A stretch of 30,486 nucleotides of DNA from Acidobacteriota bacterium (GCA_036507075.1 DASXQR010000178.1:1-30486), one strand, 5' to 3'; counted from the first letter of the stretch, positions 975-28,799 are shown. Made by a program: numbers and translations. Notes: generated from the sequence alone by a model not told the origin.

Positions 975-1309
975 GTAGACCCTTAGATTCTGACAGGATT
1001 TTGTGTCGCCTAACATTTTGTTGACGCCTCACCCGTCTGTTCAATCCTCCCGCCGCTACCTTCACCAATCTGGATAAAGCATCCTTGACGGCACTTTACC
1101 GCCCTGGATGATAAATCGATGGCTCGCAAAGTTCATTCCGCACATCGGGCATTCATATTGCTATGAGTGCTGCGGGCTCGCCGGATTTTCATCGACGAAC
1201 AACGCTGCAGCTACGCATCTTGCCAGGGCGCTGGGCATACCGAGCCGCCAATACCCGAAAGTCATTCAGCGGAAACATTAAAACGTCAAAAACATCGAGG
1301 ATATTCAAT

Positions 1310-4300
1310 TTGAACACAAAGCTTGCACTCAAATCATTACGCAGCGCCGCGGTTGTCCTTGCCATCGCGGCATACATGGCTTCCGCGCTATTGGCGCAGG
1401 GAGCCGGGACCCTTAGGGGAGAAGTCAGAGATGCGACCGCCGGAGTCATTCCCGGCGCAAAAGTTATCGCCACACATCAGCCAACAGCAGTATCACTGGA
1501 CACCGTGACCACCGCGACGGGAAGCTTCCAGTTCCCCAATCTCTTAATCGGCCCTTATACCTTGTCGGTGGAAGCACAGGGTTTCAAGACGTACGTCCAG
1601 AAAGACATCCAGCTTCTGGCCAATCAGGTGACCGATGTCAATCCCCTCCTGGAGTTGGGCGATCTTGCCCTGACTGTGGAAGTGCGCGCCGGGGGCGATT
1701 TGGTTTCGACCACTACTTCACAACTGGGCGGCTCGGTTCAGCAAAACATTGTGCTGGATCTTCCCAATCCCGCCCTTTCCGGCAATCCGTTGAATCTCGC
1801 TGTACTGTTCCCGAATACCACCACACAGGGAGGGGGCATGCTCGGCGAGGGAGGTTCCATCGGCGGAAACCGAACCCGCAATAACAGCTTTACTATTGAT
1901 GGAGTGGACAACAACGGTTTGCTCAACACGGGCGCCGTGACATCGGTCATTCAGGATGCAATCGCGGAATTCAATCTCCTCACCAATCAATTCTCCGCCG
2001 AATTCGGCCACTCGGCGGGAGGACAATTCAATATTCTTACCCAATCGGGAAGCAACCAATGGCACGGGAACGCTTTTTACTTCGGGCAGAACCGTCACCT
2101 CAATGCCCTCGGTAACCTGACCAAAGCGGCTATCCGCAGGGGTGACATTACCAGAAAGCCGCGCTATGACTTCAACCGCGGGGGCGGAACCCTGGGCGGT
2201 CCGCTGCTCCGCGATCGGCTGTTTGTCTTTGGCGCCTACCAGTATCAGACCCAGGGACGCAACGCGACAGGCGTCTCGGTTCTTGCGCCAACGTCGGAGG
2301 GACTCTCTACGCTCAACTCGATGACGCCGAATGCTCAGGTGCGTGAAATTCTGAGCCATTTCCCGGCAGCATCGAATGCGACCAGGAACGTGCTGGTGAA
2401 CAGCCAAAACATTCCGGTGGGAACTTTCCAGGCATTTGCACCCGGCTACTTCACATTGCACAGTTATCAGATAAACACCGACGCTAATTTTGGAAGCCAC
2501 CAGCTTCGCGGCAGATTCCTCGCCGATCGGCTGCGTTCGCCGTTAAGCGGCGACCTTCCGGTGGCCGAATTTACCGGCACCACATTCAACGACAACCACA
2601 AAGTCGCCATCGCCGACATATGGATCGTATCACCCACGCTGGTAAATGACTTTCGGACGTCCTACTCGCGAAGCAAGACCGGCCTGGCGACCCCGCCGGA
2701 GTTTGCGAACTTCCCAACCGTGATTCTGGACGACCTCGGCCTGATCATTGGCCCTAATCGTAATGCCCCGCAGTCATCCATCCAGAATGTATACCAGTGG
2801 TTTGACAACGTGAGCTACAGCCGCGGCAGGCATCAATGGAAGAGCGGCGCTGAATTTCGCGCGTGGATCGCGCCCACTCAGTTTCTGCCGTTTCCGCGGG
2901 GCCAGTGGGATTACCGCCGTTTGAATTCGCTGGTCAACGATCTGGTTCCTGACGGCGCCAACGGCGCGCAGCGTGGCGCCGGGCTGGGCGTATTCGCGGG
3001 AAACCAGAGAGCCACCTATGGCTTTGTTCAGGACGATGTGAAGCTGACTTCAAATCTCATGCTCAATCTGGGCCTGCGCTACGAATGGACCTCAAACCCA
3101 CGCGATGCAAAGCTCCAGGAATTGAATGCGATTTCCACTATTCCCGGGCTCTTTGAATTTCGAAATCCCAAAACCGACAAAAACAATTTTGCGCCTCGAG
3201 TGGGCTTTGCCTACGCCCCAGGGGTCAGCCAGGGCTGGTTGCGCAAGATTCTGGGCGAGCCCGGAAAATCGTCGGTTCGCGGCGGATTCGGCGTCGCTTA
3301 CGATGTCAGTTTCCAAAATCTGGTGCTTTCACGACTTCCGCCCCAGCTCCAAAGCCAGCAAACGCCCGAGTTGAGCTGCCAGGCGGCAAACCGGCCGGCA
3401 TGGTGTGCAGCACAGGCCGGATTTCTAGCCGGTGGAGGCCTGCTTCAGATTCACGTTCCTCCCGCGACCGTGGCACAGGCGCGTGCAGCAACGTCAGGAT
3501 ACATCGTGGATCAGGTGCAGCCGAAGGTGCTTACCTGGTCGTTGAGCCTGCAACGAGAATTTGCGGGCAATTATGAAGTGGAGCTTCGCTACCTGGGAAC
3601 CCGGGGACTCAGTTTGCCGATACAGATCCGGGAGAACGCGATCACCGTGTTTGAAAAGAATCCTGCTCTGGCGCTGCCGACATACTTTAGCCGATCCGAC
3701 GTTCCCGCGAGCGTTTCGGTCAATGCTCCTTCACGCGCTGCCTTTCTGGCCGCCCGCGGCGCTCGCTTCGAAGAATTCGGCGCCAGTCCGATGACAACTT
3801 ATCCAACGGCGGGCAACTCCAGCTATCACGCCGGCTCGGTGGAATTGAACCGGAGATTTCATCGTGGCTTGTTCGTGAAGTCCAGCTATACGTGGAGCCG
3901 CACGCTGGATAATTCGACCAACGAATTCAGCAGCAGCGTGGTCAATCCCCGGCGCCCGCAGGACCCTTATAACCTCAGAAACGAATGGGGACTTTCGGCG
4001 CTGGATCGGCCGCACAAGTTCGTGCTCGCCTGGGTCTGGGATCTTCCACGGTGGCATGGAGAAAACAGCTTTGTGAAATCCGCGCTCGGCGGATGGCAGT
4101 TGAACGGGACCTACCTGGCCGAGTCAGGCCAGCCCATTACCGCGCAGTCAGGTGTCGATTCCAACGGGGATCGCGATGCAATCGCTGATCGCGCCCTGCT
4201 GAATCCGAATGGCACGGCGATGGTCGGCTCGGGCGTGGACTTTGTTGTCCGCAATCCCGCCACGGGCGCTACTTCAATTTCCAGCACCAATCCCGGGAAT

Positions 4301-4657
4301 TCGCAGGTGGTGGGATATGTCGCCAGGAACGCGAGCGCGCGCTTTGTCGTGGCCGAAGCGGGAACGGTTCCGACGCTGGGCCGCAATACCATTCGGACTC
4401 CCGGCCTGAACAACACCAACCTTTCCGTGTTGAAGAAGTTCAACGTGTCTGACTCAAAACGGATGGAATTTCGGCTGGAGCTGTTTAACGCATTTAACCA
4501 CCGTCAGCCCGGCCTGGGGAGCGGCACAACCGAGCAGTCCACGTCAAACGCGCTGAGCGCGACCTACGCCAACGTGTCGAGCCCGAACTTCCTGAATGCC
4601 GGCCAATTCAGCGGCGGAAGCAGAACAGTCCAGTATGGATTGAAACTGTTTTTCTAG
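1310..4657 (+). CDS. TonB-dependent receptor with N-terminal carboxypeptidase-regulatory-like domain (Oar-type)
   Basis: Signal peptide, GTLRGEVRDATAGVIPGAKV domain, plug motifs (FTIDGVDN, AEFGHSAGG), NNFAPRVGFAY, C-terminal GLKLFF. Start moved from 1163 to in-frame TTG 1310 (GAGG at 1297-1300). Confidence 0.93.
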   Translation: MNTKLALKSLRSAAVVLAIAAYMASALLAQGAGTLRGEVRDATAGVIPGAKVIATHQPTAVSLDTVTTATGSFQFPNLLIGPYTLSVEAQGFKTYVQKDIQLLANQVTDVNPLLELGDLALTVEVRAGGDLVSTTTSQLGGSVQQNIVLDLPNPALSGNPLNLAVLFPNTTTQGGGMLGEGGSIGGNRTRNNSFTIDGVDNNGLLNTGAVTSVIQDAIAEFNLLTNQFSAEFGHSAGGQFNILTQSGSNQWHGNAFYFGQNRHLNALGNLTKAAIRRGDITRKPRYDFNRGGGTLGGPLLRDRLFVFGAYQYQTQGRNATGVSVLAPTSEGLSTLNSMTPNAQVREILSHFPAASNATRNVLVNSQNIPVGTFQAFAPGYFTLHSYQINTDANFGSHQLRGRFLADRLRSPLSGDLPVAEFTGTTFNDNHKVAIADIWIVSPTLVNDFRTSYSRSKTGLATPPEFANFPTVILDDLGLIIGPNRNAPQSSIQNVYQWFDNVSYSRGRHQWKSGAEFRAWIAPTQFLPFPRGQWDYRRLNSLVNDLVPDGANGAQRGAGLGVFAGNQRATYGFVQDDVKLTSNLMLNLGLRYEWTSNPRDAKLQELNAISTIPGLFEFRNPKTDKNNFAPRVGFAYAPGVSQGWLRKILGEPGKSSVRGGFGVAYDVSFQNLVLSRLPPQLQSQQTPELSCQAANRPAWCAAQAGFLAGGGLLQIHVPPATVAQARAATSGYIVDQVQPKVLTWSLSLQREFAGNYEVELRYLGTRGLSLPIQIRENAITVFEKNPALALPTYFSRSDVPASVSVNAPSRAAFLAARGARFEEFGASPMTTYPTAGNSSYHAGSVELNRRFHRGLFVKSSYTWSRTLDNSTNEFSSSVVNPRRPQDPYNLRNEWGLSALDRPHKFVLAWVWDLPRWHGENSFVKSALGGWQLNGTYLAESGQPITAQSGVDSNGDRDAIADRALLNPNGTAMVGSGVDFVVRNPATGATSISSTNPGNSQVVGYVARNASARFVVAEAGTVPTLGRNTIRTPGLNNTNLSVLKKFNVSDSKRMEFRLELFNAFNHRQPGLGSGTTEQSTSNALSATYANVSSPNFLNAGQFSGGSRTVQYGLKLFF

Positions 4658-10212: not shown

Positions 10213-12993
10213 ATGCGTGAATGGTTTATGCGAAAAACTCGGCTGAGGCTGTTTCAAAACCCTTGTGGAGACGGCCCGCTGGGCCGTCTCCCTGGAGCTT
10301 GGACATTTCGAGGCGTAGAGACGCGGCATGCCGTGTCAGAGCCTGGCCGCGACATGTCGCGGCCAGCAAAGGGACAGCCGTCGGCAACGGGGCCGCGGCA
10401 TGTCGCGGCCAACTCAGACGCGACATGTCACGTCTCTACGTGGCGCCGCGAAGCGGTGCCCGGAGACGCCCCAACCGGGCGTCACTACAAATGTGGGAGC
10501 ATTTTGAGACAGTCTCAGCTACTGGCGGTGATGCTCCTGCTGGGTCCATTTCTGCAGGCGGCCCAGCACCCAGGCGGTAATGCGAGCCATCCTGCCCGCA
10601 GAGCTGCGCCAACAGCGCGAGGCCGGACAGCAAGCCTGGAGATCCAGCCCGCAAAAATCGTACTCAGCAGCCCGCGCGACCTTGGCCGGGTGCTGGTAAC
10701 CGCTGTCATGCCAGACGGCACGCGACAGGACTTCACGCCCAAGGCGCAATTGAACAGTATCAGTGATGTGATAAACATCGACCGCTCCGGACTGATACAC
10801 CCCCTGAAAGACGGCGCGGCGTCTGTCGAAGTGAGCGCCGGCGACATGAAAACGCGTTTTGACGTGACCGTACAGGGCATGGCCCAAAATCAGGAAGTGG
10901 GCTTTGTCAGGGATGTGATGCCGATTCTCGGCAAAACCGGTTGCAACAGCGGTGTCTGTCACGGGGCTGCCAAAGGCAAGAACAGCTTTAAGCTTTCGCT
11001 GCGCGGTTATGATGCTGCTTTCGACCACGCGATGCTGGTGAACGACTTGTGGGGCCGGCGATTTAATCGCGCGGATCCCCAGCAGTCCTTGATCCTGCTG
11101 AAACCCACCACCAGAGTGGCGCATGGCGGCGGGCTCCGTTTTCCTGTCGATTCTCCTTATTACCAGACAGTGTCGACCTGGATTGCGCAGGGCGCGCGGT
11201 TCAACGACGAAAAAGCCGGAATGGTGGAGAGGTTGGAAGTGCTTCCCTCCGAGATCATGATGGCCAGGCCCGGGCTGGCGCAGCAAATGCTGGTCGTCGC
11301 ACATTACCCTGACGGCTCCAGGCGCGACGTCACATCAGAATCGGTTTTCAGCAGCAGCTCGACCAGCATTGCCGATGTTTCCGACACCGGGCTTGTGACT
11401 TCGATCCGGAAGGGAGAAGCGGTGATCCTGGTGCGCTATCAGGGACAATTCGTGCCCGTCGGCATCACGGCTCTAACCGAGAAGCGTGGATTCCACTGGA
11501 CGCCGCTTCCACAGCACAATTACATAGACCGGCTGATCGACACCAAGCTGAAGCGGCTGAAAATAGCCGCTGCACCGCTGTGCAGTGACGCGGAATTCAT
11601 TCGCCGTGTTTCGCTGGATCTGACGGGCCAGATTCCACGCCCGGAAGATGCGCGCGCGTTCCTGGAAGATCCCGCGGAAAGCAAAATCAAGAGAAGCCGG
11701 TTGGTGGAAAAACTTCTCGCTTCACCGGCCTATATCGATCACTGGACATTGAAATGGGGCGATCTGCTGCAGAGCAACCGCCGTTTTCTCGGCGAAAAGG
11801 GCCTCTGGTCGTTTCGCAACTGGATCCGGCAGTCGATCGCCGAAAACAGACCTTACGATCAGTTCGTGCGCGAAATCATCATCGCGGGCGGCAGCACTTT
11901 CAGAAATCCCCCGGCCAATTTCTACCGGGTGTCGCGCGAGCCCAAGGTTGCGATGGAGACCGCGTCGCAGCTTTTTATGGGAGTGCGCATGATGTGCGCG
12001 CAGTGCCACGATCACCCATTCGAGCCGTGGACGCAGAAAAATTACTATCAGATGACCGCCTTCTTCGGCGGGATCGCGCTGAAGGAAGGTGCGGATGCCG
12101 GCGAGGAAATTGTATATGAAAAGCGTACAGACTTTCAGGTGAAACATCCAAAGTACGGTTACAACGTGCCTGCCGGTTTTCCGTTTGCCGCGCCCGCGCA
12201 CGTGGATCCGGATAGAGACCGGCGCGAGCAGTTCGCAGCCTGGCTCACGTCGCGGGAAAACCCCTATTTTTCTATGGCCATTTCCAATCGAATCTGGAGC
12301 TACTTCTTCGGCCGGGGAATAATTGATCCTGTTGACGATCTACGACCGAGCAACCCCTCTGCAAATCCGGCGCTGCTGGCGGCGCTGGCTAACGATTTAA
12401 AAAAGAACAATTTTGATCTGAAACACCTGATGCGGACCATTGCGAACTCGCGCGCCTATCAAAGCAGTTTCCGCATCAATCAGTGGAACGAAGACGACGA
12501 GATCAATTTTTCGCATCAGCGCCCGCGCCGCCTTCCCGCCGAGCAACTTTTGGATGCGGTCAGCGCCGCTACCGGCAGCCGGATTAGATTTGAGGGACTG
12601 CCTGAAGATTTTCTCGCGGGACAATTGCCCGATTCCACCGCTGGCGCGGGAGGTTTCCTCGACCTGTTCGGACGCCCGGCGCGCGAGTCGGCATGCGAAT
12701 GCGAGCGCAAAGACGATATCAGCCTGGGGCAGACTTTGAATCTGGTGAATGGGGGCACTCTGGCCGACGCGATCGCGGATCCGGCTGGACGCGTTGCCAA
12801 ACTGATTCTGTCAGGCGCTGATGATCCCACCATTGTTCAGGAGTTTTATCTGGCCTCCTACAGCCGGCGACCGGAGGCCGAAGAAATGAAGCGATCGCTC
12901 GCCTATCTGCGCGCGGGAGCAAATCGAGCCGAGCGCGCCCAGGACCTTCTCTGGGCGCTTCTCAATAGTCCGGCGTTTTTATTCAATCGGTAG
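10213..12993 (+). CDS. DUF1549/DUF1553 domain protein with Ig-like domains; N-terminus interrupted in frame by a MITE
   Basis: GCNSGVCHG, FKLSLRGYD, NYIDRLI, EFIRRVSLDLTG, CAQCHDHPFE, NRIWSYFFGRGIIDPVDD, DLLWALLNSPAFLFN. Start at 10213 or 10228. Confidence 0.93.
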   Translation: MREWFMRKTRLRLFQNPCGDGPLGRLPGAWTFRGVETRHAVSEPGRDMSRPAKGQPSATGPRHVAANSDATCHVSTWRREAVPGDAPTGRHYKCGSILRQSQLLAVMLLLGPFLQAAQHPGGNASHPARRAAPTARGRTASLEIQPAKIVLSSPRDLGRVLVTAVMPDGTRQDFTPKAQLNSISDVINIDRSGLIHPLKDGAASVEVSAGDMKTRFDVTVQGMAQNQEVGFVRDVMPILGKTGCNSGVCHGAAKGKNSFKLSLRGYDAAFDHAMLVNDLWGRRFNRADPQQSLILLKPTTRVAHGGGLRFPVDSPYYQTVSTWIAQGARFNDEKAGMVERLEVLPSEIMMARPGLAQQMLVVAHYPDGSRRDVTSESVFSSSSTSIADVSDTGLVTSIRKGEAVILVRYQGQFVPVGITALTEKRGFHWTPLPQHNYIDRLIDTKLKRLKIAAAPLCSDAEFIRRVSLDLTGQIPRPEDARAFLEDPAESKIKRSRLVEKLLASPAYIDHWTLKWGDLLQSNRRFLGEKGLWSFRNWIRQSIAENRPYDQFVREIIIAGGSTFRNPPANFYRVSREPKVAMETASQLFMGVRMMCAQCHDHPFEPWTQKNYYQMTAFFGGIALKEGADAGEEIVYEKRTDFQVKHPKYGYNVPAGFPFAAPAHVDPDRDRREQFAAWLTSRENPYFSMAISNRIWSYFFGRGIIDPVDDLRPSNPSANPALLAALANDLKKNNFDLKHLMRTIANSRAYQSSFRINQWNEDDEINFSHQRPRRLPAEQLLDAVSAATGSRIRFEGLPEDFLAGQLPDSTAGAGGFLDLFGRPARESACECERKDDISLGQTLNLVNGGTLADAIADPAGRVAKLILSGADDPTIVQEFYLASYSRRPEAEEMKRSLAYLRAGANRAERAQDLLWALLNSPAFLFNR
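10242..10519. mobile_element. MITE/REPIN-like non-autonomous element with terminal inverted repeats and six internal REP-like palindromes
   Basis: TIRs GCTGAGGCTGTTTCAAAA / TTTTGAGACAGTCTCAGC (16 of 18); internal mirror order A-B-C-C'-B'-A'; GTAG/GTGG-led hairpins; perfect 24-bp palindrome at 10343-10366. Confidence 0.85.
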
Positions 12994-13004
12994 GCCAGGG
13001 GTTA

Positions 13005-13365
13005 ACGGGTTTACGGGTTACGGGTTCGCGGGTTGCGGGTTTGCGAGTTGCGGGTTTGCAAGTTGCGGGTTTGCGAGTTTCGGGTTTGTTGCGGGTTATT
13101 GGGTTGCGGGTTATCGGGTTGCGAAGTTTCGAGTTTGTGAGTTTCGGATTATGAGTTTGAGAGTTTCGGGTTCGTGAGTTATGGCGAGTTATGGGTTATG
13201 AGTTGCAATGAGTTGCAGGTAGGAGTTACGGTTGCGGGTGCGGAAAAGTGCGACGACATGGTCGTTTTTGCGATCTATGTAACCCGCAACTCGCAAACCT
13301 CGTAACCCGCAACTCGCAACCTCGTAACTCGCAAACCCGTACTTGTGAACCCAAAACTCGCAAAC
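13005..13365. repeat. GGGTTGC/GAGTTGC 7-8-mer inverted tandem-repeat element
   Basis: Long G/T-rich arm ~13005-13240 mirrored by a shorter AACCCGC/AACTCGC arm at 13281-13365. Confidence 0.88.
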
Positions 13366-13390
13366 ACGTCACTTTATGAGGTGAAGAATC

Positions 13391-14845
13391 ATGTTGGTTA
13401 TTCCGCAGAGAATTCGAAAATTGTGTCACGGAACTACACGCCGCGAGTTTCTCAGGGTGGGCGGAGCGGCGATGTTTGGACTCAGCCTCCCGGAATTCTT
13501 TTCACTGAAGGCCCGTGCTGCCGCCCTGGAGAAAACGGCCACGGGCGCACTCAAAGACAAAGGTTTTGGCCAAGCCAAGTCGGTCATCCTGCTCTTTCTT
13601 CAAGGAGGGCCCAGCCATCTGGACATCTGGGATCCAAAACCTGACGCGCCATCGAACATCCGGGGAGAATTCAAGCCCATCAAAACGAAAGTCCCCGGAG
13701 TGCAGCTCAGCGAAACCATGCCGCTGCTGGCCGAACAACTCGACAAGTGTACTCTTATCAGGTCGATGAGTTACACGCCGGAAGGATTGTTCAATCACAC
13801 GGCGGCCATGTATCAGATGCTTACCGGGTATCCTCCCGACAAGGTTTCCCCTTCGGGCCAGCTGGAGCCTCCATCGCCGCGTGACTTTCCAACCTGTGGT
13901 TCGTGGGTTGCAAAACTCAAGCCTCCCGTCGAATCGATGCTGCCGTTTGTGGAGTTGCCGCGCCCGCTTCAGGAGAGCAGTGTAGTGGGTAAGGGCGGCG
14001 CTGCGGGATTTCTGGGACGCGCCTACGATCCTTATCGTCTCTACCAGGATCCGAACAAGCCGATCAGAATCGACGATCTGGCGCTTCGGTCGGATGTCGG
14101 ATCAGAACGGCTCAAGACCCGATTTGAGCTGCGCAAAGGCCTGAACGATTCGATGAAGGACCTGGAAAAAGCAGTCAGCGCCACTGCGGTGGACCAGTAC
14201 TACGAAAAGGCGTTTGATCTGGTGCTCTCCGGAAAAGCGCGCCAGGCATTTGACCTGGAACAGGAGCCTGCCGACATCCGGAATAGATACGGTCGCACCA
14301 CATTCGGGCAGGGAGCTCTGCTTGCGCGGCGTCTCGTGGAGGCGGGCACGCGATTGGTGCAGCTCAATTGGCCATCGGTAGCCAACGGCGATCCCGAAAC
14401 CACCGCCTTTGACACGCATGCCGCCAACTTTGGGCCGCTCAAGAACCTCCACTGCCCGGTGCTGGACCGTACGCTCGCGGCGCTGCTGGAGGACCTGGAT
14501 CAACGTGGATTGCTCAACGAAACGCTGGTGGTGGCGGTGGGCGAATTCGGACGATCACCCCGGCTGGGCGTGAGCACTTCGGGAAATACCAATGCCCCCG
14601 ACGGTCGCGATCACTGGCCATACTGCTATACCGCTTTGATCGCCGGCGGAGGGATCAAGCGAGGCGAGGTTTACGGCAAGTCCGATCAGCATGGATCAGC
14701 CCCCGTAGAAAACCCTGTGCATCCTACAGACCTTTTAGCCACGGTGTATTTTGCGCTCGGCATCGATCCGGAAATGGAGATACTCAACGACATGAACCAG
14801 CCGCGGCCGCTGGTAAAAGGAAATCCACTTGTCCGGCTTTTTTGA
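13391..14845 (+). CDS. DUF1501 domain protein
   Basis: Twin-Arg-like TRREFLRVGG; AKSVILLFLQGGPSHLDIWDPKP, RYGRTTFGQGALLARRLVEAG, GEFGRSP, GRDHW; GAGG RBS. Confidence 0.95.
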   Translation: MLVIPQRIRKLCHGTTRREFLRVGGAAMFGLSLPEFFSLKARAAALEKTATGALKDKGFGQAKSVILLFLQGGPSHLDIWDPKPDAPSNIRGEFKPIKTKVPGVQLSETMPLLAEQLDKCTLIRSMSYTPEGLFNHTAAMYQMLTGYPPDKVSPSGQLEPPSPRDFPTCGSWVAKLKPPVESMLPFVELPRPLQESSVVGKGGAAGFLGRAYDPYRLYQDPNKPIRIDDLALRSDVGSERLKTRFELRKGLNDSMKDLEKAVSATAVDQYYEKAFDLVLSGKARQAFDLEQEPADIRNRYGRTTFGQGALLARRLVEAGTRLVQLNWPSVANGDPETTAFDTHAANFGPLKNLHCPVLDRTLAALLEDLDQRGLLNETLVVAVGEFGRSPRLGVSTSGNTNAPDGRDHWPYCYTALIAGGGIKRGEVYGKSDQHGSAPVENPVHPTDLLATVYFALGIDPEMEILNDMNQPRPLVKGNPLVRLF

Positions 14846-20001: not shown

Positions 20002-20163
20002 CTAGGGGCCTTTGGGCGGCGGCGGCGGCGGCGGCGGATCGCCTCCACAACAGACTTCGTCGTTCGTTTTAATCAGAACTTCCGGCTCGTCCATTGAGAA
20101 GTCGGAAAAGTACGGCATGGTTTCATAGGCAACCAGCATTGCAAGAAACAAAACGAAAGCCAT
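20002..20163 (-). CDS. Small putative secreted peptide, 53 aa (MAFVLFLAMLVAYETMPYFSDFSMDEPEVLIKTNDEVCCGGDPPPPPPPPKGP)
   Basis: Translated by hand (below the ORF-track cutoff); AGGGGGG RBS just upstream of the ATG; hydrophobic N-terminus, acidic middle, CC-GG-D-poly-Pro tail. Confidence 0.75.
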   Translation of the reverse strand: MAFVLFLAMLVAYETMPYFSDFSMDEPEVLIKTNDEVCCGGDPPPPPPPPKGP

Positions 20164-20364
20164 AGAGCCCCCCTAATGAGTGGGAATCCGCATTGCGGAG
20201 TTCACCGGTTGTGATTTGGACCTTAGCCTAAAGGGGGATCCAGTTGCGGCGTAAGCGTTATTGGTTTGTCCAAAACGAAACTTAAAAATTTATTGGCATA
20301 GACAGAATTGCTTGACTTTTTCAAAAACCTTGATTCGCGGCGGGTGTCGGGACTAGTCTTGCCA

Positions 20365-21105
20365 ATGCATTTCACCCAGATTACTCTCTGGATTTCCGCT
20401 TCGGCGCTGCATTTATTGATCTTCTTCCGTGGAATGCATGAGCGAGCGCTCACACGCTACAAGGCCTTTTATGTGTATATCGGCTTTGTGAGCGCGATTT
20501 CGTTGATGCGGATCTGCATTTTCTGGAAATATGGCTGGTACTCACCACATTACTACTACGCATACCACCTGCCGAACCTCCTGATGCCGATTTTTCAATT
20601 ACTGGTTTTGTTGGATTTATACGGACGATTTATTGGCTATTCCAAAATCTCTTGGAAAAAGAGAGTCAAATTCATTACCGTTGCGACATTGATGGCGGCG
20701 CCCGTGGCCTGGAAGGTGTTTACGGTTACAAGCTTCAGCTTCTTCTGGAGGTATGACACCTTTATGCTGCTGCTTCAGGTGGCAGCCTGTTTGATGGTCT
20801 GGCACGCATTTGCCGCCCGGCGTGACACCGACTTCGGGCGCAATCTGAAGGGCATTATGGTTGGAATTGCTTCGCTGCTCGCATTCCAGGCACTGAATTT
20901 TGCGACTTTGATTTTGGGGGGAGGAACTTACCTGGTCTTCATGTTTTTGACTCAGTTCATATACTTCCTTGCCCTGGCGGTGTTTGCCTATACGCTATGG
21001 ACTTTCGACCCGGTGCGAACCCTCGAGCCTGTCGATGAACAGCGATTTGACAAGATCAACCAGGATCTTCAGCAGGCTGTGAAGACATTCCTTACATCCC
21101 GATGA
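20365..21105 (+). CDS. Seven-TM integral membrane protein of unknown function
   Basis: Seven hydrophobic segments by eye, Tyr-rich loops (RYKAFYVY, HYYYAY), short C-terminal helix; ATG 20365 preferred over TTG 20308. Confidence 0.85.
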   Translation: MHFTQITLWISASALHLLIFFRGMHERALTRYKAFYVYIGFVSAISLMRICIFWKYGWYSPHYYYAYHLPNLLMPIFQLLVLLDLYGRFIGYSKISWKKRVKFITVATLMAAPVAWKVFTVTSFSFFWRYDTFMLLLQVAACLMVWHAFAARRDTDFGRNLKGIMVGIASLLAFQALNFATLILGGGTYLVFMFLTQFIYFLALAVFAYTLWTFDPVRTLEPVDEQRFDKINQDLQQAVKTFLTSR

Positions 21106-21506
21106 TTTACGCCTATGTAGTGGCATTGTCGCTGCTGCTGATCGCCTGCACTTTCTATTTCCAAATTTCATCGTTACGCTGGGATGAAAATGAAAGAAGG
21201 CGTCTTGAGCAGGTAGAGCTCCGTCTGGCTCATGTTCTTCGTCTGCAGGAAGCGCCCGACGTGCGCATGATGTTGCTGGATCCAAAAACCCGCCAGTCGC
21301 TATTCCTGGATTTTTCGGATCAGCTCAGGCGGGATATTCTGGACCTGTGGAAATTACGCGCGCTGAAATGGAAATCACTGATATTTGTGGCGCTGTTTTT
21401 TGCAGGTTACTATCTGATGCGGCTGAAATCCAACCTGTTTTGCAGCCCGAACGATCTAAGATTCCTCTCCGGCCTGGAACTGGCGCTGGTACGCACGCTC
21501 GACTGA
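21102..21506 (+). CDS. Small membrane protein coupled to the 7-TM gene
   Basis: ATGA start/stop overlap; N-terminal TM, charged helical middle, second hydrophobic segment. Confidence 0.82.
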   Translation: MIYAYVVALSLLLIACTFYFQISSLRWDENERRRLEQVELRLAHVLRLQEAPDVRMMLLDPKTRQSLFLDFSDQLRRDILDLWKLRALKWKSLIFVALFFAGYYLMRLKSNLFCSPNDLRFLSGLELALVRTLD

Positions 21507-21515
21507 AAGTTCGCG

Positions 21516-21547
21516 GGCAACTTCTTGTTTTTTCGACAAACTTTTCA
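21516..21547 (-). repeat. Dispersed AT-rich motif, copy 2
   Basis: Reverse complement TGAAAAGTTTGTCGAAAAAACAAGAAGTTGCC aligns with 27-59. Confidence 0.75.
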
Positions 21548-21560
21548 GAAGACAAGACCG

Positions 21561-21725
21561 CTCACGTCAACGTCGACGTTTATCGTCTACGGCCACGTGC
21601 ACGTCAATGTTCACGAAGCACGTCCGAATGCTGCTTGACAGAACTTTCCCGGAGGCAAAAAGCGATTGCTTGTCGTGAGCGTGGACGTACTCGTTGACGT
21701 CTATCGTTGACGTGCACGTGGCCGT
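21561..21725. repeat. CACGTC/GACGTG hexamer-based inverted repeat element
   Basis: Perfect 19-bp IR ACGGCCACGTGCACGTCAA (21589-21607) / 21707-21725 within 6-nt-periodic arms; lies between convergent genes. Confidence 0.85.
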
Positions 21726-21820
21726 CCTCGGCTTTTTTGGTTGGGGCCCTACAGGCGGACTGTGCCTCGGCGGTGAGTGCAACGTGGTAATCCCGGCTAT
21801 TCGAGAGTAGGCACGCGCGG

Positions 21821-22396
21821 TTAGCGTGCGAAGAGATGTGACCAGATAATCAAGTATTGCTCGACCAGGCGTGAAAGGTACGGCGGACAACTGCTCACTT
21901 TCAGGAAGAAGTGATATGAACAGTCGCCGTTCCGCCTTTCAAACCAGCACCCCCCCTCATACCTCCGCCCGCTCTCGGTATAAAGCACCAGTCGATCCAG
22001 CAAAAAGTCGCTCAGATTCTGGTGCAGTTGCACCTCGCATTTTCCCTTCCGAACCGACATCAGGACCGCTCCTTCGGCGCCGCTCAGTGAAATGATTTCG
22101 TTGACACGGAATTCCTGTATTCGGCGGATGTAACCGGAATGCCGCAGCACATCGGCTCCAATGTTTTCCACCGGCCACACTTCGCTGATGTCAGCCTCCA
22201 GCACGCCGAGAATTCGAAACAGATTGTCCAGGTTGATGTTGTAATAGCCGTTCTCCATGCAGGCGTACGAACCGAGAGGAATCCCCGCCCGTGTGGCCAA
22301 TTCCTGCATCTTGATTTTCTTGTTGACCCTCAATTCCCGTACTTTTCTGCTGACGAAACTGTTGATAGTCCTTTTTTCGTCTGTCGGATTTCCCAT
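21821..22396 (-). CDS. XRE-family helix-turn-helix transcriptional regulator with unknown C-terminal domain
   Basis: KVRELRVNKKIKMQELATRAGIPLGSYACMENGYYNINLDNLFRILGVL; GGGAGAG RBS before ATG 22396. Confidence 0.9.
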   Translation of the reverse strand: MGNPTDEKRTINSFVSRKVRELRVNKKIKMQELATRAGIPLGSYACMENGYYNINLDNLFRILGVLEADISEVWPVENIGADVLRHSGYIRRIQEFRVNEIISLSGAEGAVLMSVRKGKCEVQLHQNLSDFLLDRLVLYTESGRRYEGGCWFERRNGDCSYHFFLKVSSCPPYLSRLVEQYLIIWSHLFAR

Positions 22397-22871: not shown

Positions 22872-24629
22872 TTACCTTCCGACTCCGGAGTGAATCAACT
22901 TCGAGATGGTCTGGATCAATTCGGCGGGATCGACCGGTTTGGCAAGGTGGACATGAAAACCGGCGGCTTTCGCCCTTCTCCGATCCTCTTCGCCGGCGTA
23001 CCCGGTCAGCGCCACCGCTGGGACATCGTTGCAGCCCGGGTGCTTCCTGATTTTCTCCAGCAGCATATATCCGTCCTCGCGTGGCATGGCAATGTCGAGA
23101 AGGACAACATCCGGGATGGATCGGTGCAGCGAGTCGGCGGCGGCGCTCGAGGTTCCTGCGGCCGTGACAGCCGCGCCGGCCTGCTCCAACAAGGTAGCCA
23201 GGACAGTCCGAGTTTCTGCCTCGTCGTCGGCAAGCAGAACCGTGACGCCGTTGAGGACTTTTCGCAAATCTGGGATCTCCGACGCGGCGAGCGGTCGCGC
23301 CGAGCTGAGCAATGGCAGAAGAATGATGAAGGCAGCCCCTCCACCGTTGCCGGCGCTTTCGGCCCGGACTGTGCCGTCGTGCAATTCCGCCAGTCGCCGC
23401 ACTACTGTCAGACCCAGGCGCAAACCTGCCAGCGCCCGAGAGGTTGCAGAGTCGGTTTGCCGAAAATAGTTGAAAAGGTGCGGCAGGGATTCGGTCGGAA
23501 CCCCGATATCGCTGCCCGCAATTCGAATCTCGGCTTCGGTGGCGGTCTTAGCAAGCGCAATCTGAATCTTGCCGTCCGCAGCCGAAAATTTGACTGCGCT
23601 GGAAAGAAGACTCTCAATCATCTGGCGCAGCCGCCGAGCGTCCCCCTGCACCGGCTCTACAAACCCGTCCACCTGCACTTCCAACCCGATTGACTTTGAT
23701 TCTGCCGCAGGTCGGACCGTCTCCAGGGCCTGATTGATGATAGCGGACAACTGAACCGTTTCCCGCTGCAACTGGACCTTCTCGCTCATCAAATCCGAAA
23801 CGTCGATCAGGTCCTGGATCAGTTGAGCCTGCAGTTTGGTGTTTCTCTCGATTACTTCAAGAGCTTTTGCTTTAGTCTCGGCGTCCAGTTGGCCGGTGCG
23901 CATGATGTGCACCCATCCGAGAATGGAATTCAGGGGTGTGCGGAGCTCATGCGACAAGACGGCAAGGAACTCGTCGTTCAGCCGGCTCGCTTCCTCAGCC
24001 TGGATACGCGCCGCCTGCTCCCGCTTTAAGTCCTTTTCCCGATCTTTTTCAACTTCATTCCTGGAGATGATCGCATCGCAGGCCAGAGCCGGGATACTGG
24101 CCAAATTACGGCCTGAAACCGACAGCCTCTGATGAAAGGCCGTATCGTTCCCCAGTGACGAAGAAAGCTCGGGATCCATTCGATCCAGCGCGGCGCGCAA
24201 ATGGTCCCTTTGCCTCGCGGAGCGAATAGTTTCCCGGATCGATCGATTTAGCTGATGCAGGTTGCCGGAGGCGACAATCCAATAGTTGTCGATCACGGGG
24301 GCTGCAGACAGGTCGCGCCGCAGCGCACCCATCCGATCTGCCTCCGCAATAAAGATCAGATGAGCCATGGAGGCGACCGTGGTCAGGTGTATCGCGGTGG
24401 CGAGCGGCTGTTTTACGTGCGGTCCAATGATAATAATTACCGGTTCCAGTGAAACCGAGATCAGGTCGTGCAGGCAAGCAACGCCTTCTTCCCCTTCCGG
24501 ACAGAGATAAACGTGAAAGTCCGCCTCCTGCCCCTGCCTGGAAATCTGCTCAAGCAACCGCGCGCCTTCTGCCGCGCTGTCGATCAGGAGAACGACCTGT
24601 TCCTTCATAAACCCGACGGCTTGGAACAC
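22872..24629 (-). CDS. Hybrid histidine kinase/response regulator with degenerate HATPase domain
   Basis: HisKA LSHELRTPLNSILG; C-terminal receiver (LADDE, LLDIAMP, AKP); N-terminal receiver-like domain; start GTG 24629 or ATG 24608. Confidence 0.92.
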   Translation of the reverse strand: MFQAVGFMKEQVVLLIDSAAEGARLLEQISRQGQEADFHVYLCPEGEEGVACLHDLISVSLEPVIIIIGPHVKQPLATAIHLTTVASMAHLIFIAEADRMGALRRDLSAAPVIDNYWIVASGNLHQLNRSIRETIRSARQRDHLRAALDRMDPELSSSLGNDTAFHQRLSVSGRNLASIPALACDAIISRNEVEKDREKDLKREQAARIQAEEASRLNDEFLAVLSHELRTPLNSILGWVHIMRTGQLDAETKAKALEVIERNTKLQAQLIQDLIDVSDLMSEKVQLQRETVQLSAIINQALETVRPAAESKSIGLEVQVDGFVEPVQGDARRLRQMIESLLSSAVKFSAADGKIQIALAKTATEAEIRIAGSDIGVPTESLPHLFNYFRQTDSATSRALAGLRLGLTVVRRLAELHDGTVRAESAGNGGGAAFIILLPLLSSARPLAASEIPDLRKVLNGVTVLLADDEAETRTVLATLLEQAGAAVTAAGTSSAAADSLHRSIPDVVLLDIAMPREDGYMLLEKIRKHPGCNDVPAVALTGYAGEEDRRRAKAAGFHVHLAKPVDPAELIQTISKLIHSGVGR

Positions 24630-25408: not shown

Positions 25409-28400
25409 TCAGAAGACGAACTTGAATCCTAACTGGATGATGCGCGGATCGCTCGCGGTGTTTACAGTTCCAAAACGCGATGGCGTGCGGCGCGGGTCTC
25501 CGATGGGTGCGTCCAACGGAACTTCCGAGGGTATTACTGCGACCGGGGCTCCGAAGGTCGGGTGGTTCGCCAGATTAAAGAACTCGGCGCGGAACTGAAA
25601 GTATCTTTCCGAGATCTGGAAATTCTTCAACAGCGCAAGGTCGAGCGATTGAGTGCTGTCGGACCGAAGGGTGTTTCGTCCCAGCGCGCCAAACGTGCCC
25701 GTCGCCGGCAGCGTGTAGGGACGAGTGTCGAACCACTGATCGAGCCGGTGGCCGGTGAACTCGTTCGGCACCTCACGGACGTTGGGACGCTGTCCGCCGC
25801 TGCGCCCGGTATTTGCGCGGTCGCTGTTGATCGAGACAGTAAACGGCAGTCCCGACTGCAGCGTAAGGATGCCGCTCGCCTCCCATCCGCCGGCGACCGT
25901 ACGCAGCAGCTGTGATGACGCGTTGCGCGCCACGGGCAGTTGCCATGTCCAGGAACCGACGAACCGGTGCGGGATGTCATTGTCCGACAGCCCGCGGTTA
26001 TTCCGCAGGTCGTACTGGTTGGGAGAGCCGCCGAGCGCGTTGCTGGCGTTATCAATAGACTTCGACCAGACGTAGCTGGCGAGAAAACTCAGTCCCGCGG
26101 AGAGGCGTTTTTCCAGCTTTGTCTGGAATGCGTGATACACAGAATGCGCGTCAAAATCGCCGCGCGCGCTGGCGCCGAAACGCGGATATGGCCGGCGCGC
26201 CTGCGCGCATGCCGTGGTCGAAGCCGGACAGTCATTGAAGTTCTGATTGATCTCAAGGCGCGTTCCCTTCTGCCCGATGTAGCCCACTTCGGCGGCCATG
26301 TTCCAGGGCAGCGCCCGCTGGATGCTGAAGTTCCATTGCTGTGCGTATGAGTTCCGCAGATTCACCTGGCTGGTGAGCAGCGTCGGAAATCCGCCGCCGA
26401 TCGCGGCCTCACTTCCGCCAAATGGATCCGCAAACGTCCGGGTGATGCGCCCTCCGGTCGGAAGAGACTCGTCCTCGTTCCAGACAAACGGCGGAACCTT
26501 GGCGTAGCTGTTGGGGAAATTCGTGTCCGCGAATTCAAAAAAGATGCCGTAAGCGGCGCGTATCACCATCGAGTCGGCGCCGAAAGGCCGCCAGGCAAGA
26601 CCCAGCCTGGGAGACCAGTCGTTGCGATCCGGCGGGCGCACAGAAACCGGCAGGCGGCGCTGTTCCGAGGTTTCAATGATGTCGGCGTAGCGCGGATATA
26701 TGATCCGTGAAACCTGTTGCGCGGCCAGGTCGACATTCCCATTCTGGCTCGCCACGATGATGTGCCCGTTGGAAAAATCGAAGGCGCTCATCTGATTGCG
26801 AATACCCTTGTAGAACGGGTTTTGCTCCCAGCGAAGGCCCAGGTTCAGGGTCAGGTTGCGCGTCGTCTTCCAGTCATCCTGAAAATAGATTCCCCAGAAG
26901 TCGTCGTACACGCCAAACAAGTCGAGCGGATAAGCGCGGCGAACGCGACGGATCGCGCCCAGAAGGAAGTCGGCAAACGCGTCGCCGGTGAAATTGCCAT
27001 TGAAGAAGAACTCGCCCTGGGCGCGGTTGCCGACCACGAATGTGGCCTTCTGGTGGCGCCATTCGAAGCCGGTCTTCATACTGTGCGAGCCGCGGATGAC
27101 GGTGAAGTTGTCATTCACCTGCCAATGATCGATGCGGTTGCGCTTGGGCCGCTGGTCCTGGGCCAGGCCGAGCAACTGTACATAGCCCGACTCGATGAGC
27201 ACATCGGGAAAGGCGGGATACGCGCCGGCCGTATTCGCGAACCCGCGGATACCGGCCGCAGCAGTGTGATCCGTTCCTTCGCCGACGGGCCGGAAGAAGA
27301 GATGCGAACGGTTGTATCCGACGCGAAACTCATTGAGCGTGCCGCTGCCGAGGATGCGCGTATAGCCGAGAGCTGCGTTCTGTGCGCGTACCCGCAGCGG
27401 AGGATAGTCTCCCAGAAGAGGGGAGTCAGTCGGATCGGTCTGGCGCAGGTCCATGTGGCTGTAGCGCGCAAACAGCATGTTGCGGGAATTGAAATTGGTA
27501 TCGGACCGCAGGTTGTAATTGTTCTGCCAGACTCGCTGCACCGGATTGAACACAAAAGCGGGCCTGCCCGAGCTGTCCACGCTGTTCGCCGTCGGGATGA
27601 ACCGAAGGAAATAAAGCGCGGGCGTCGACATGCGCCCGCTCGGAATGGTGTTGTTGGGGAATGCGGCGCGGTTGTTTTCCGGATCATTGATGCGGAAGGG
27701 GAATACACCGCGTTTCATCTCCTCGGTGGGGGCGCGCAGGTTGCGAGTGTCCGCGCGGTGCTGGCGCGTCCCTTCCATGTTGGCAAAGAAAAATGTCCGG
27801 TCGCGCACAATCGGTCCGCCGAGCGTGCCGCCGAACTGATGCCGCGTGAGTTCACCTTTATTCTGGGCGAAGAAATTCCGCGCGGCCCAACTGTCATCGC
27901 GGACAAACTCAAACGCGGTGCCGTGGAAGCTGTTCGTTCCGGATTTGATCGTGGTCAGAATATTCCCTCCGCTGCGGCCGTATTCGGCAGGGATATTCGC
28001 CGTCTGCACCTTAAATTCCTGCACCGCGTCGACCGAAGGGCTCAGGTAAGTTCCTCCAAACTGCGTTTCCGTGATGTCGATTCCGTCCAGATAAAAAGCG
28101 GTTTTGCGCGCGCGCGTGCCGCCCAGATAGACGGACACGAAGTTGGACCGCGTGCTTGGACCCGCCGGCAGGAAGATGGCACCCGGCGTGAGCGCAGCAA
28201 GCTGGTAGAAGTTCCGCCCGTTCAACGGCATGTTCACGATCGCCTCGTTCTGGACCACCTGTCCGACCACGGACTGCTCGGTGTTCAGCAGCGACGCAGA
28301 CTCCGCCTCTACATTTACGGTCTGAGCGACCTCTCCCACGCGAAGCTTTACATCCAACCGCGTGCGTTGACCGACGCGCAGGACGACCTGGTACGTCTCG

Positions 28401-28654
28401 GGAGTAAAGCCGGGCATCTCAACGCGGAGCGTGTACGGACCGATGGCCAAGGCAGGAATTTCGTAGTTGCCGCCTTCGTCGCTCATCACCGAGCGAGACG
28501 CGGCGGTTTCGCTGTGGGCGACGGTAATATGCGCGCCGGGGACGGCCGCCGATTGCGGATCGGTGACCGTACCCAGCAGCGTCGCGGTCGCAGTCTGGGC
28601 CAGGGAAATCGAGGGAGTGACGAGCAGAAGCAGAAGCAGAAATCGCAGTTTCAT
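25409..28654 (-). CDS. TonB-dependent receptor with carboxypeptidase-regulatory-like domain
   Basis: Signal peptide MKLRFLLLLLLVTPSISLA with AAAGGA RBS; MPLNGRNF, PSVDAVQEFKV, KSGTNSFHG, WSPRLGLAWRP, C-terminal GFKFVF. Confidence 0.95.
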   Translation of the reverse strand: MKLRFLLLLLLVTPSISLAQTATATLLGTVTDPQSAAVPGAHITVAHSETAASRSVMSDEGGNYEIPALAIGPYTLRVEMPGFTPETYQVVLRVGQRTRLDVKLRVGEVAQTVNVEAESASLLNTEQSVVGQVVQNEAIVNMPLNGRNFYQLAALTPGAIFLPAGPSTRSNFVSVYLGGTRARKTAFYLDGIDITETQFGGTYLSPSVDAVQEFKVQTANIPAEYGRSGGNILTTIKSGTNSFHGTAFEFVRDDSWAARNFFAQNKGELTRHQFGGTLGGPIVRDRTFFFANMEGTRQHRADTRNLRAPTEEMKRGVFPFRINDPENNRAAFPNNTIPSGRMSTPALYFLRFIPTANSVDSSGRPAFVFNPVQRVWQNNYNLRSDTNFNSRNMLFARYSHMDLRQTDPTDSPLLGDYPPLRVRAQNAALGYTRILGSGTLNEFRVGYNRSHLFFRPVGEGTDHTAAAGIRGFANTAGAYPAFPDVLIESGYVQLLGLAQDQRPKRNRIDHWQVNDNFTVIRGSHSMKTGFEWRHQKATFVVGNRAQGEFFFNGNFTGDAFADFLLGAIRRVRRAYPLDLFGVYDDFWGIYFQDDWKTTRNLTLNLGLRWEQNPFYKGIRNQMSAFDFSNGHIIVASQNGNVDLAAQQVSRIIYPRYADIIETSEQRRLPVSVRPPDRNDWSPRLGLAWRPFGADSMVIRAAYGIFFEFADTNFPNSYAKVPPFVWNEDESLPTGGRITRTFADPFGGSEAAIGGGFPTLLTSQVNLRNSYAQQWNFSIQRALPWNMAAEVGYIGQKGTRLEINQNFNDCPASTTACAQARRPYPRFGASARGDFDAHSVYHAFQTKLEKRLSAGLSFLASYVWSKSIDNASNALGGSPNQYDLRNNRGLSDNDIPHRFVGSWTWQLPVARNASSQLLRTVAGGWEASGILTLQSGLPFTVSINSDRANTGRSGGQRPNVREVPNEFTGHRLDQWFDTRPYTLPATGTFGALGRNTLRSDSTQSLDLALLKNFQISERYFQFRAEFFNLANHPTFGAPVAVIPSEVPLDAPIGDPRRTPSRFGTVNTASDPRIIQLGFKFVF

Positions 28655-28749
28655 CGCGAGATCCTTTCGGAAACGTTGATGTCCAAGATGCACCACTGCT
28701 CCAAACATGTCAACGGGATACAGTGTGCTATGCTGGCGGGCGGAAAGCA

Positions 28750-28799
28750 GGCCACGAATTTCGGCCACGAATTTCGGCCACGAATTTCACGAAATCATT
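28750..28799 (+). repeat. Single CACGAATTT-family arm ((GGCCACGAATTTC)3)
   Basis: Shares CACGAATTTCACGAAATCATT with 18060-18080; no mirror arm seen. Confidence 0.8.

Follow-up and report, generated by a model that had tools for sequence, protein, structure and literature searches.

A stretch of 30,486 nucleotides (nt) from an Acidobacteriota bacterium (GCA_036507075.1 DASXQR010000178.1:1-30486; 'the window' below means this whole stretch) carries at 20002..22396 a cassette of four genes, encoding a small peptide, a protein with seven transmembrane helices (7-TM), a partner with two such helices (2-TM) and a regulator of the XRE type. The reading put forward here, tentatively and with confidence a little short of even, is that the cassette constitutes a kinase-less, probably autoregulated circuit that runs from a peptide-linked membrane pair to the XRE protein. 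Co-inheritance of the genes, the paired palindromes in their shared intergenic region and the predicted folds of the products are what the analysis directly supports; export of the peptide, its contact with the receptor, the relay and DNA binding are steps that we infer. The genes, with lengths in amino acids (aa), are as follows.

20002..20163, minus strand: peptide gene, 53 aa; signal-like hydrophobic N-terminus, variable linker, CC, poly-Pro, TAG stop
20365..21105, plus strand: 7-TM protein, 246 aa; bundle shaped like that of a G protein-coupled receptor (GPCR), predicted N-out/C-in, without an output domain
21102..21506, plus strand: 2-TM partner, 134 aa; ATGA overlap with the 7-TM gene at 21102-21105
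21821..22396, minus strand: XRE regulator, 191 aa (to 22423 with a TTG start); converges on the 7-TM/partner pair

All four genes keep an identical order and orientation in relatives at 26-70% identity, a recurrence which argues that the layout is more than chance. Loci were collected by whole-genome searches of relatives (a match in 8 of 41 genomes), by a phylum-wide genome search with a broad 7-TM profile (39 of 401 genomes), by a scan of species genomes that gave 5 loci, every one from Acidobacteriota, and by a metagenome scan that gave just 3, all ending near the cassette. Once duplicates are removed the close clade comprises 19 distinct loci, those from related genomes being non-independent samples, and in a quick tree search 16 close-clade rows cluster with a support of 94 in the Shimodaira-Hasegawa-like approximate likelihood ratio test (SH-aLRT). 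The partner gene adjoins the 7-TM gene at all 19, with a 4-nt overlap in most; a convergent XRE homologue is present at 17 of the 17 having DNA at that side, and a divergent peptide open reading frame (ORF) at 14 of the 15 having enough upstream DNA, with a sixteenth locus showing its first 26 residues at a contig end. The first-pass annotation, made from the window alone, had proposed looking beside 7-TM homologues for a small ORF with a Cys/Pro tail and for conservation of the partner and XRE genes, and these evaluable loci bear it out on each count. The lone peptide-less locus (L048:1617-3579, genome G327) has genes for an IS4-like DDE transposase and an IS200-like TnpA directly upstream of its 7-TM gene, and no operator sites of the kind described below are left there.

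The 53-residue peptide reads MAFVLFLAMLVAY...EVCCGGDPPPPPPPPKGP and ends in EVCCGGD-P8-KGP, the two Cys codons being at 20047-20052 and the Pro run, encoded by (CCG)7+CCC, at 20014-20037; its hydrophobic N-terminus, its tail and its divergence from the 7-TM gene are as first annotated. A candidate ribosome binding sequence precedes it.

20168..20173, minus strand: Shine-Dalgarno-like GGGGGG, 5 nt ahead of the peptide ATG in the window

In the intergenic alignment all 10 relatives have GGAGG (CCTCC on the plus strand) ahead of the peptide ATG, at a distance of 5-9 nt. Across 14 loci the homologues are of 49-66 aa and start some 115-400 bp from the 7-TM start; an N-terminal stretch of 12-17 hydrophobic residues is followed by a variable linker rich in Ser, Thr, Ala and Pro, then by CC, invariant in all 14 aligned peptides at 35-45 residues from the start, and finally by a tail of 10-24 aa with 3-11 Pro. 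The commonest tail is CC..P7-8, with CCxDPPP in genus g18 and CCPEPWPCFPGEAMC, which has four Cys, in the large-genome genus g26; the tail of locus L005, CC...C..C, also has four. In one close subfamily N-terminus and tail are invariant and the linker is variable. A subfamily of the form MFYKA...CCPEPWPC is found on contigs of Mb size. (The window's pure trinucleotide repeat, (CCG)7+CCC, is one in which slippage could alter tail length with the frame left intact.) Loci L001-L043 contain 1770 distinct ORFs with a length of 25-110 aa; the CC/Pro pattern is met with in 15, and 12 of these are the peptide gene. Public gene calls contain 22 clusters of the family, none named, and none of the 14 peptides has a family match in Pfam or NCBIfam.

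The plainness of the window's (CCG)7 repeat, and the longer ORFs that overlap it on the other strand, could be taken to mean that the 53-aa ORF is a chance one over a GGC repeat, leaving those for the 7-TM, partner and XRE proteins as the sole real genes. In relatives the Pro runs mix CCG, CCA, CCT and CCC codons, the window alone having the plain repeat, and from this mixture selection is seen to act at the protein level. With frame, Shine-Dalgarno site, CC and Pro-rich tail also kept in 14 loci at low DNA identity, a chance origin is scarcely credible and, on this comparative evidence, the ORF is a real, conserved gene.

A signal-like N-terminus followed by a stall-prone C-terminal run is also a layout of the SecM, MifM and VemP type, and the small ORF might on that account be a translation-arrest 'monitoring' leader, whose poly-Pro stall, relieved by export of the N-terminus or by EF-P, regulates a gene in cis. 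In sister lineages dealt with below (L049/L050 and L047) the small ORF shares its strand with the 7-TM gene and precedes it, as such regulation would have it. In the main clade, however, it is divergent from the 7-TM gene, and what lies downstream on its own strand varies, being a GMC oxidoreductase gene in the window and a CheY-like, LexA or Ser/Thr kinase gene elsewhere, an arrangement at odds with arrest peptides that monitor Sec or YidC. Several members with only three Pro, or with a PWPC tail and no Pro run, still keep CC, and a pure stall element needs no invariant CC. An arrest leader is consequently considered improbable.

The peptide and 7-TM genes diverge from a shared region, 20164-20364, that has 201 bp and a GC content of 47.3% as against 56.1% for the window, in keeping with the AT-rich intergenic region of about 200 bp first described. 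Two candidate operators and a set of promoter-like boxes lie in it.

20261..20273, no strand assigned: candidate operator 1, perfect 13-bp palindrome TTGGTTTGTCCAA; counterpart in 13 of 14 loci
20293..20305, no strand assigned: candidate operator 2, TTGGCATAGACAG; left half retained, degenerate, 32 bp from operator 1
20330..20359, plus strand: promoter-like boxes of the 7-TM operon, TTGATT at 20330-20335, 18 nt, TAGTCT at 20354-20359, ending 5 nt before the ATG

The motif consists of two 13-bp palindromes, TYGG-N5-CCRA, i.e. T(T/C)GG-N5-CC(G/A)A, with starts 32 bp apart, and a pair was counted when both sites had at least 7 of 8 matches and the spacing was 31-33 bp. Such a pair is present in 12 of 14 intergenic regions; in shuffled regions the mean was 0.008 loci and the maximum 1. 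Genus g18 has TCGG..CCGA in both half-sites, and there the partner gene is apart from the 7-TM gene and a second pair is found in front of it. Five whole genomes contain 13 strict pairs, 8 of which are in the cassette, with 0 for a reversed-pattern control; genome-wide, the palindrome pairs are almost module-specific. No enrichment is seen for the single operator motif across the window with one mismatch allowed (12 matches against 15 expected), and the relaxed pair pattern in the window's genome is uninformative (20 and 23 matches against 11 and 8 for the control). Since neither count gives support, the case for operators is one of position and of strict pairs in relatives.

Paired palindromes suggest a dimeric helix-turn-helix (HTH) protein bound as two dimers, and the XRE regulator, being the sole conserved candidate, would be the protein that binds them. 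The initial statement that the XRE gene was linked to the others by adjacency only is thereby superseded, as conserved paired palindromes stand in the promoter region of the peptide and 7-TM genes. Blocks CTTGAY and CTAGTCT are conserved in the intergenic alignment, the second ending 5-15 nt before the 7-TM start. A generic sigma-70 scan called no promoter within the intergenic region; judged by conservation and position the two blocks would form a promoter with a very short leader. In one locus (L016:2242-2640, genome G252) the operators and the promoter-like boxes are set apart by some 225 bp of inserted, GC-rich sequence that contains inverted repeats, and the operators remain about 72 nt from the peptide start. 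A further site lies within coding sequence.

20633..20645, no strand assigned: operator-like palindrome TTGGCTATTCCAA, perfect, at the IGYSK codons of the 7-TM coding sequence

Loci L002, L003, L009, L044 and L045 have a site at the same place, which may be a third binding site or a mere by-product of conserved codons. Genus g18 has, outside the cassette, a third strict pair (L051:3007-3051, L052:3069-3113 and L053:3045-3089, of genomes G021, G354 and G371), situated between an operon for alternative complex III, with its ActD/NrfD-type protein, and a convergent FAD monooxygenase gene, beside an invariant block of 52 nt and a minus-strand TATAAG box. That region has no Rfam match, and no counterpart of it was found in the window's genome; it may be a small RNA or another target of the regulator.

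The 7-TM ORF spans 20308-21105, with ATG at 20365 rather than TTG at 20308 being the start chosen by gene callers and present in all homologues. An AlphaFold2 model from 11 sequences has seven TM helices and a C-terminal helix, with a mean predicted local distance difference test (pLDDT) score of 84.4. Lys and Arg are concentrated in loops 1, 3 and 5, and because of this clustering the topology is predicted to be N-out/C-in. By profile search the family comprises 427 clusters at E<=1e-3, a number that falls to 40 at E<=1e-30, and the nearest in the ESM Atlas carry only the title 'hypothetical protein' and are mostly from Acidobacteriota. Pfam and NCBIfam find no domain of any kind in the window's protein, Pfam giving no HisKA or HATPase domain, and none of 24 sampled family members reaches the Pfam cut-off; the 7-TM, partner and peptide proteins are all without a match in PADLOC, and no kinase, cyclase or known family was found for any of the three with these resources. 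What had been annotated as a lack of kinase, cyclase and HTH output domains is thus, as far as Pfam and NCBIfam reach, a lack of any domain. Membership of a characterised transporter or enzyme family would have told against the first-pass proposal, and searches of Pfam, NCBIfam, PADLOC, folds and the ESM Atlas give none.

Foldseek against the PDB gives no match for the model at E<=1e-3. By exhaustive structural alignment GPCR-type domains rank first, the best match being LYCHOS (8wr3_B, Z 12.5, root-mean-square deviation 4.2 over 190 residues); next come many GPCRs, among them the EP2, adhesion, class B and Frizzled receptors, at Z 10-11.7. Rhodopsins match more weakly, with a TM-score of about 0.5. 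The likeness to GPCRs and microbial rhodopsins is of a seven-helix up-down bundle with the N-terminus predicted to be outside; the differences are an identity of 5-15%, scores in a generic range, the absence of a G protein and a helix 7 (residues 189-210 of the model, TYLVFMFLTQFIYFLALAVFAY) that contains no Lys and hence not that for retinal. Pfam has no 7TMR-DISM_7TM or 7TM-7TMR_HD match in the window's protein, which is only of 246 aa, or in the 24 family members. Conserved residues are found both in the outer half (W9, G57, S60, Y63, P113, Q175, N178, F179 and F192) and on the inner face (R22, Y38, G158, N160, G163 and W212). The family has no invariant His, Asp or Glu, and no Cys pair suggestive of catalysis or thiol exchange. 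Exosortase, CAAX/CPBP protease, a VKOR/DsbD-like thiol enzyme and AgrB peptidase were considered and rejected, there being no family match and no conserved catalytic residues in the 7-TM family.

The partner, whose gene has the ATGA overlap at 21102-21105 reported initially, has two hydrophobic segments. Its loop, LAHILRLLEAPDVR, is rich in charge and strongly conserved, and its C-terminal helix, DLRFLSGLELAL.R.L, is invariant and preceded by a nearly invariant Cys. None of 13 members of its family has a Pfam match, nor does the window's protein have one in NCBIfam. The regulator, described at the outset as an XRE protein converging on the membrane pair, does have a recognizable domain, Pfam HTH_3 (E 4.5e-8), the sole one from Pfam or NCBIfam. 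Its AlphaFold2 model (mean pLDDT 85.5) has an XRE HTH at about residues 9-76 and a C-domain at about 87-188, the latter being of some 100 aa in the order alpha-beta-beta-alpha-beta-beta-alpha. With the whole-protein model, rather than the C-domain folded by itself, as the query, the HTH resembles ClgR-like and C.AhdI-type proteins at Z 11-12, and the C-domain resembles the Roadblock fold in a Rag-like GTPase C-domain (9m28_A, Z 10.8 over 104 residues), in MglB (6hjm_A, Z 9.5 over 100 residues) and in a Streptomyces Roadblock/LC7 protein (3kye_A, Z 9.0), with GAF domains scoring about equally (2qyb_A, Z 9.7; 4mmn_A, Z 9.5). The C-domain has no Pfam Robl_LC7 sequence match, and its ESM Atlas scores are all below 0.8; from the model its fold is Roadblock/LC7-like or GAF-like. 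The regulator family has 131 clusters, all titled 'helix-turn-helix transcriptional regulator' and from Acidobacteria.

If these components do form a circuit, the small peptide would be exported via Sec and cleaved, leaving a mature part of about 35-40 aa whose conserved C-terminal 10-24 aa would be the active end. The peptide would contact the periplasm-facing residues of the 7-TM protein, W9, G57, S60, Y63, P113, Q175, N178, F179 and F192. The GPCR-shaped 7-TM protein, together with its 2-TM partner, would sense the peptide and pass on the signal without a kinase, the relay presumably proceeding by way of the cytoplasmic face of the former (R22, Y38, the G158-N160-G163 'GRNLKG' loop and W212) and the charged loop of the latter. 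Control of the regulator would be exerted at the membrane, with its Roadblock/GAF-like domain either bound or released. As a dimer of dimers on the two operators, the regulator would then set the transcription level of the peptide gene as well as that of the 7-TM/partner operon, so closing an autoregulatory loop of the sort used in quorum or envelope-state sensing. The vicinal thiols suggest that what is sensed may be the peptide's redox or metal state, and not its concentration only. The ligand-receptor-transducer unit of the first-pass annotation is thus partly supported: gene conservation, family searches and the paired palindromes speak for it, whereas secretion of the peptide, its role as ligand and output through the partner would be its putative steps.

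A bolder version is that there is a third, kinase-free route across the membrane, in which a GPCR-shaped receptor and a 2-TM co-receptor read a self-made, exported peptide with a vicinal dithiol and poly-Pro, perhaps its redox or metal state, and directly hold or release a Roadblock-domain transcription factor for action on paired operators; that is regarded as rather unlikely. It is similarly doubtful that the relay would represent a prokaryotic receptor-to-Roadblock platform put together from four never-described protein families.

The main rival view of the same parts takes the peptide to be cargo, client or small subunit of the membrane pair, namely a thiol peptide, periplasmic or tethered to the membrane, that buffers metal or redox state or has a structural role. 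The 7-TM protein and its partner would then, as a complex, insert, hold, export or protect against the peptide, and the XRE protein would be a local regulator answering some other cue through its GAF/Roadblock-like domain. Both parts of that view are considered unlikely, though well above negligible. Four-Cys tails (CC...C..C in L005 and the CCPEPWPCFPGEAMC subfamily) would suit metal or disulfide chemistry. The nearly invariant Cys in the C-terminal segment of the partner, the resemblance of the regulator's C-domain to GAF domains that bind small ligands (2qyb_A and 4mmn_A, at the scores given above) and the third g18 operator pair, beside the alternative complex III operon and FAD monooxygenase gene, can be counted on the same side. 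So can a core of peptide, 7-TM and partner genes without XRE in L049/L050. Set against it are the lack in the 7-TM family of an invariant His, Asp or Glu, or of a Cys pair, for catalysis or thiol exchange, and the lack of any modification enzyme travelling with the cassette, the neighbours being variable (GMC oxidoreductase, CheY, LexA, Ser/Thr kinase). Judged from sequence and model, conservation on both faces of the 7-TM protein would also fit a transducer better than a passive holder.

The sister lineages merit description here. In family f13 (L049/L050) a same-strand ORF, with a signal-like start and an end of ...C-PPPPP-xP, lies upstream of a distant 7-TM gene, after which comes a weak homologue of the partner. 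The window's own genome has a paralogue on another contig (G000 contig C220, L047:2380-3932), whose 7-TM gene (E 2e-41) is overlapped by a 2-TM-like ORF and preceded, on its own strand, by a 48-aa ORF containing PIPPPPPPPWPW, with a P7 run; a gene for a HisKA_3-like kinase lies close by, and XRE is absent. From lineages lacking XRE it follows that the regulator is an add-on to a three-gene core and not an obligatory output. More distant members of the 7-TM family, mostly in family f40, stand alone, and at none of those loci is there a poly-Pro small ORF.

Several of these observations weigh against the circuit from peptide through membrane pair to XRE protein. L049/L050 and L047 keep the poly-Pro small ORF and genes for the 7-TM and partner-like proteins with no XRE gene, their small ORF being on the same strand, and the 48-aa ORF of L047 has no signal-like start. 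Export is argued from the hydrophobic start of 12-17 residues, and several peptides, that of the window included, have no positive charge preceding it. The second operator of the window is degenerate, making the window one of the two loci that fall below the pair criterion, and L006, from one species, has a different and single palindrome. Covariation between recognition helix and half-site tracks lineage, and so is weak as a sign of binding. The operators are upstream of the promoter-like boxes, a position compatible with the regulator being either an activator or a repressor. Finally, the fold scores of the 7-TM protein are in a range (Z below about 13) that is possibly generic for helical bundles.

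For the circuit as proposed, CylR1/CylR2 of the Enterococcus faecalis cytolysin operon is the closest functional precedent. CylR1, a membrane protein, and CylR2, an XRE HTH protein, respond to a secreted peptide without a phosphorelay, in a Gram-positive system whose mechanism is still unresolved (PMC3709268). The likeness is of a small XRE-type HTH and a multi-pass membrane protein with a Cys-derived or Cys-bearing peptide from the same locus, no kinase, and divergent promoters that in Cyl overlap (PMC3709268). It is a likeness of function and of features. The XRE HTH is present in the cassette's regulator (HTH_3 E 4.5e-8; XRE folds Z 11-12). CylR2 is a bare HTH of 66 aa, whereas the cassette's regulator adds a Roadblock/GAF-like domain of 100 aa; CylR1 has three predicted TM helices in place of a 7-TM protein and a 2-TM partner; and the signal in Cyl, a lanthipeptide, is the product of dedicated enzymes, no lanthipeptide enzyme being among the window proteins scanned.

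Members of the RRNPP group (PlcR, PrgX, ComR, Rgg) share with the cassette an XRE regulator encoded beside a gene for a small secreted peptide, and the regulator's HTH superposes on those of ComR (5jub_A, Z 10.2) and PrgX (2aw6_A, Z 10.1). RRNPP proteins have a TPR domain, about 200 aa long, that binds the peptide after its re-import; the C-domain here is instead an alpha/beta domain of about 100 aa, and two dedicated membrane proteins are conserved. In the AgrD/AgrC and ComC/ComD peptide pheromone systems a tiny precursor is paired with a multi-TM sensor. What the cassette shares with Agr and Com (AgrD/B/C/A, ComC/D/E) is a tiny precursor gene beside that for a multi-pass membrane protein and, probably, an autoregulatory loop; it differs in having no histidine kinase, response regulator, AgrB-type peptidase or double-glycine leader. 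Pfam and NCBIfam give nothing for AgrB or AgrD in the 7-TM, partner or peptide products, and the 7-TM family has no invariant His. The first-pass annotation had the unit matching none of the known peptide-pheromone families, and the searches of Pfam and NCBIfam, with no match to Agr or Com families, agree.

MglB and the Streptomyces Roadblock/LC7 proteins are comparable for the fold of the regulator's C-domain. The Streptomyces 'conservon', CvnA-D, is a proposed membrane-sensor-linked, G-protein-like relay. Systems of Roadblock proteins and small GTPases differ in that the cassette has no GTPase gene and has its Roadblock-like domain fused to an HTH. Bufferin-type Cys peptides with a signal peptide, which are made by the ribosome and modified after translation, have an adjacent modifying enzyme of the MNIO (DUF692) type; no MNIO domain is present among the window proteins scanned, and the flanks of relatives were read as ORFs and only partly domain-scanned. 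No part of the cassette belongs to Agr, Com, RRNPP, rhodopsin, 7TMR-DISM or any PADLOC system.

The surroundings of the window's cassette include two large proteins with CarboxypepD_reg and an outer-membrane beta-barrel, and a PSCyt2/PSD1 and DUF1501 gene pair (1163-4657, 25409-28768 and 10213-14845). Also encoded are a WD40/PSCyt1 protein, a Ser/Thr kinase, a GMC oxidoreductase, a hybrid histidine kinase, a PIN-domain protein and a low-molecular-weight phosphatase. In relatives no gene of this set is kept beside the cassette, and that includes the hybrid kinase at 22872-24629 which in the window is near it. XRE controllers are common in anti-phage defence, toxin-antitoxin and mobile-element modules, and the only PADLOC matches, in which the HTH weakly hits models of a 'control protein' (best E 8.1e-5), could be read as pointing to a module of that type. 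PADLOC gives nothing for the peptide, the 7-TM protein or the partner, though, and the flanks are ordinary chromosomal genes that differ between genomes, with insertion sequence elements only at L048, where the peptide gene is absent; a defence or mobile module is very improbable.

Filling the gap between the convergent partner and XRE genes is a palindromic element of 186 bp (21550-21735) with a 19-nt perfect inverted repeat and weaker arms. Its predicted fold has an energy of -76.9 kcal/mol (z -4.3) and there are 56 matches across the window's genome; it looks like a dispersed repeat akin to miniature inverted-repeat transposable elements or repetitive extragenic palindromes, inserted between the two genes. 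In a soil metatranscriptome run, from an oligo-dT library, near-identical contigs cover 20240-20553 and 21279-21523, DNA carry-over being possible and no conclusion about expression being drawn. No contig lay on the peptide ORF, the repeat of which the search skipped.

A full-text literature search found no description of such a cassette. Peptide-linked regulation from membrane to XRE protein is of a known kind; what is new is that it is built wholly from undescribed families, all four having so far been seen in Acidobacteriota. These are among the most abundant of soil bacteria and, to our knowledge, almost nothing is known of how they sense each other or their surroundings. The cassette is compact, self-contained and testable, with a peptide of 35-40 aa that can be synthesized, a defined operator pair and 7-TM residues conserved on both faces. 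If the proposal is true, it would add a kinase-less design for peptide sensing to Gram-negative bacteria, provide a second, independent model for the unresolved CylR1/CylR2 problem, and present a fusion of HTH and Roadblock/GAF as the output of a GPCR-shaped receptor. Even without signalling, a widespread family of CC/poly-Pro peptides, predicted to be exported and provided with a dedicated membrane pair, would be new biology.

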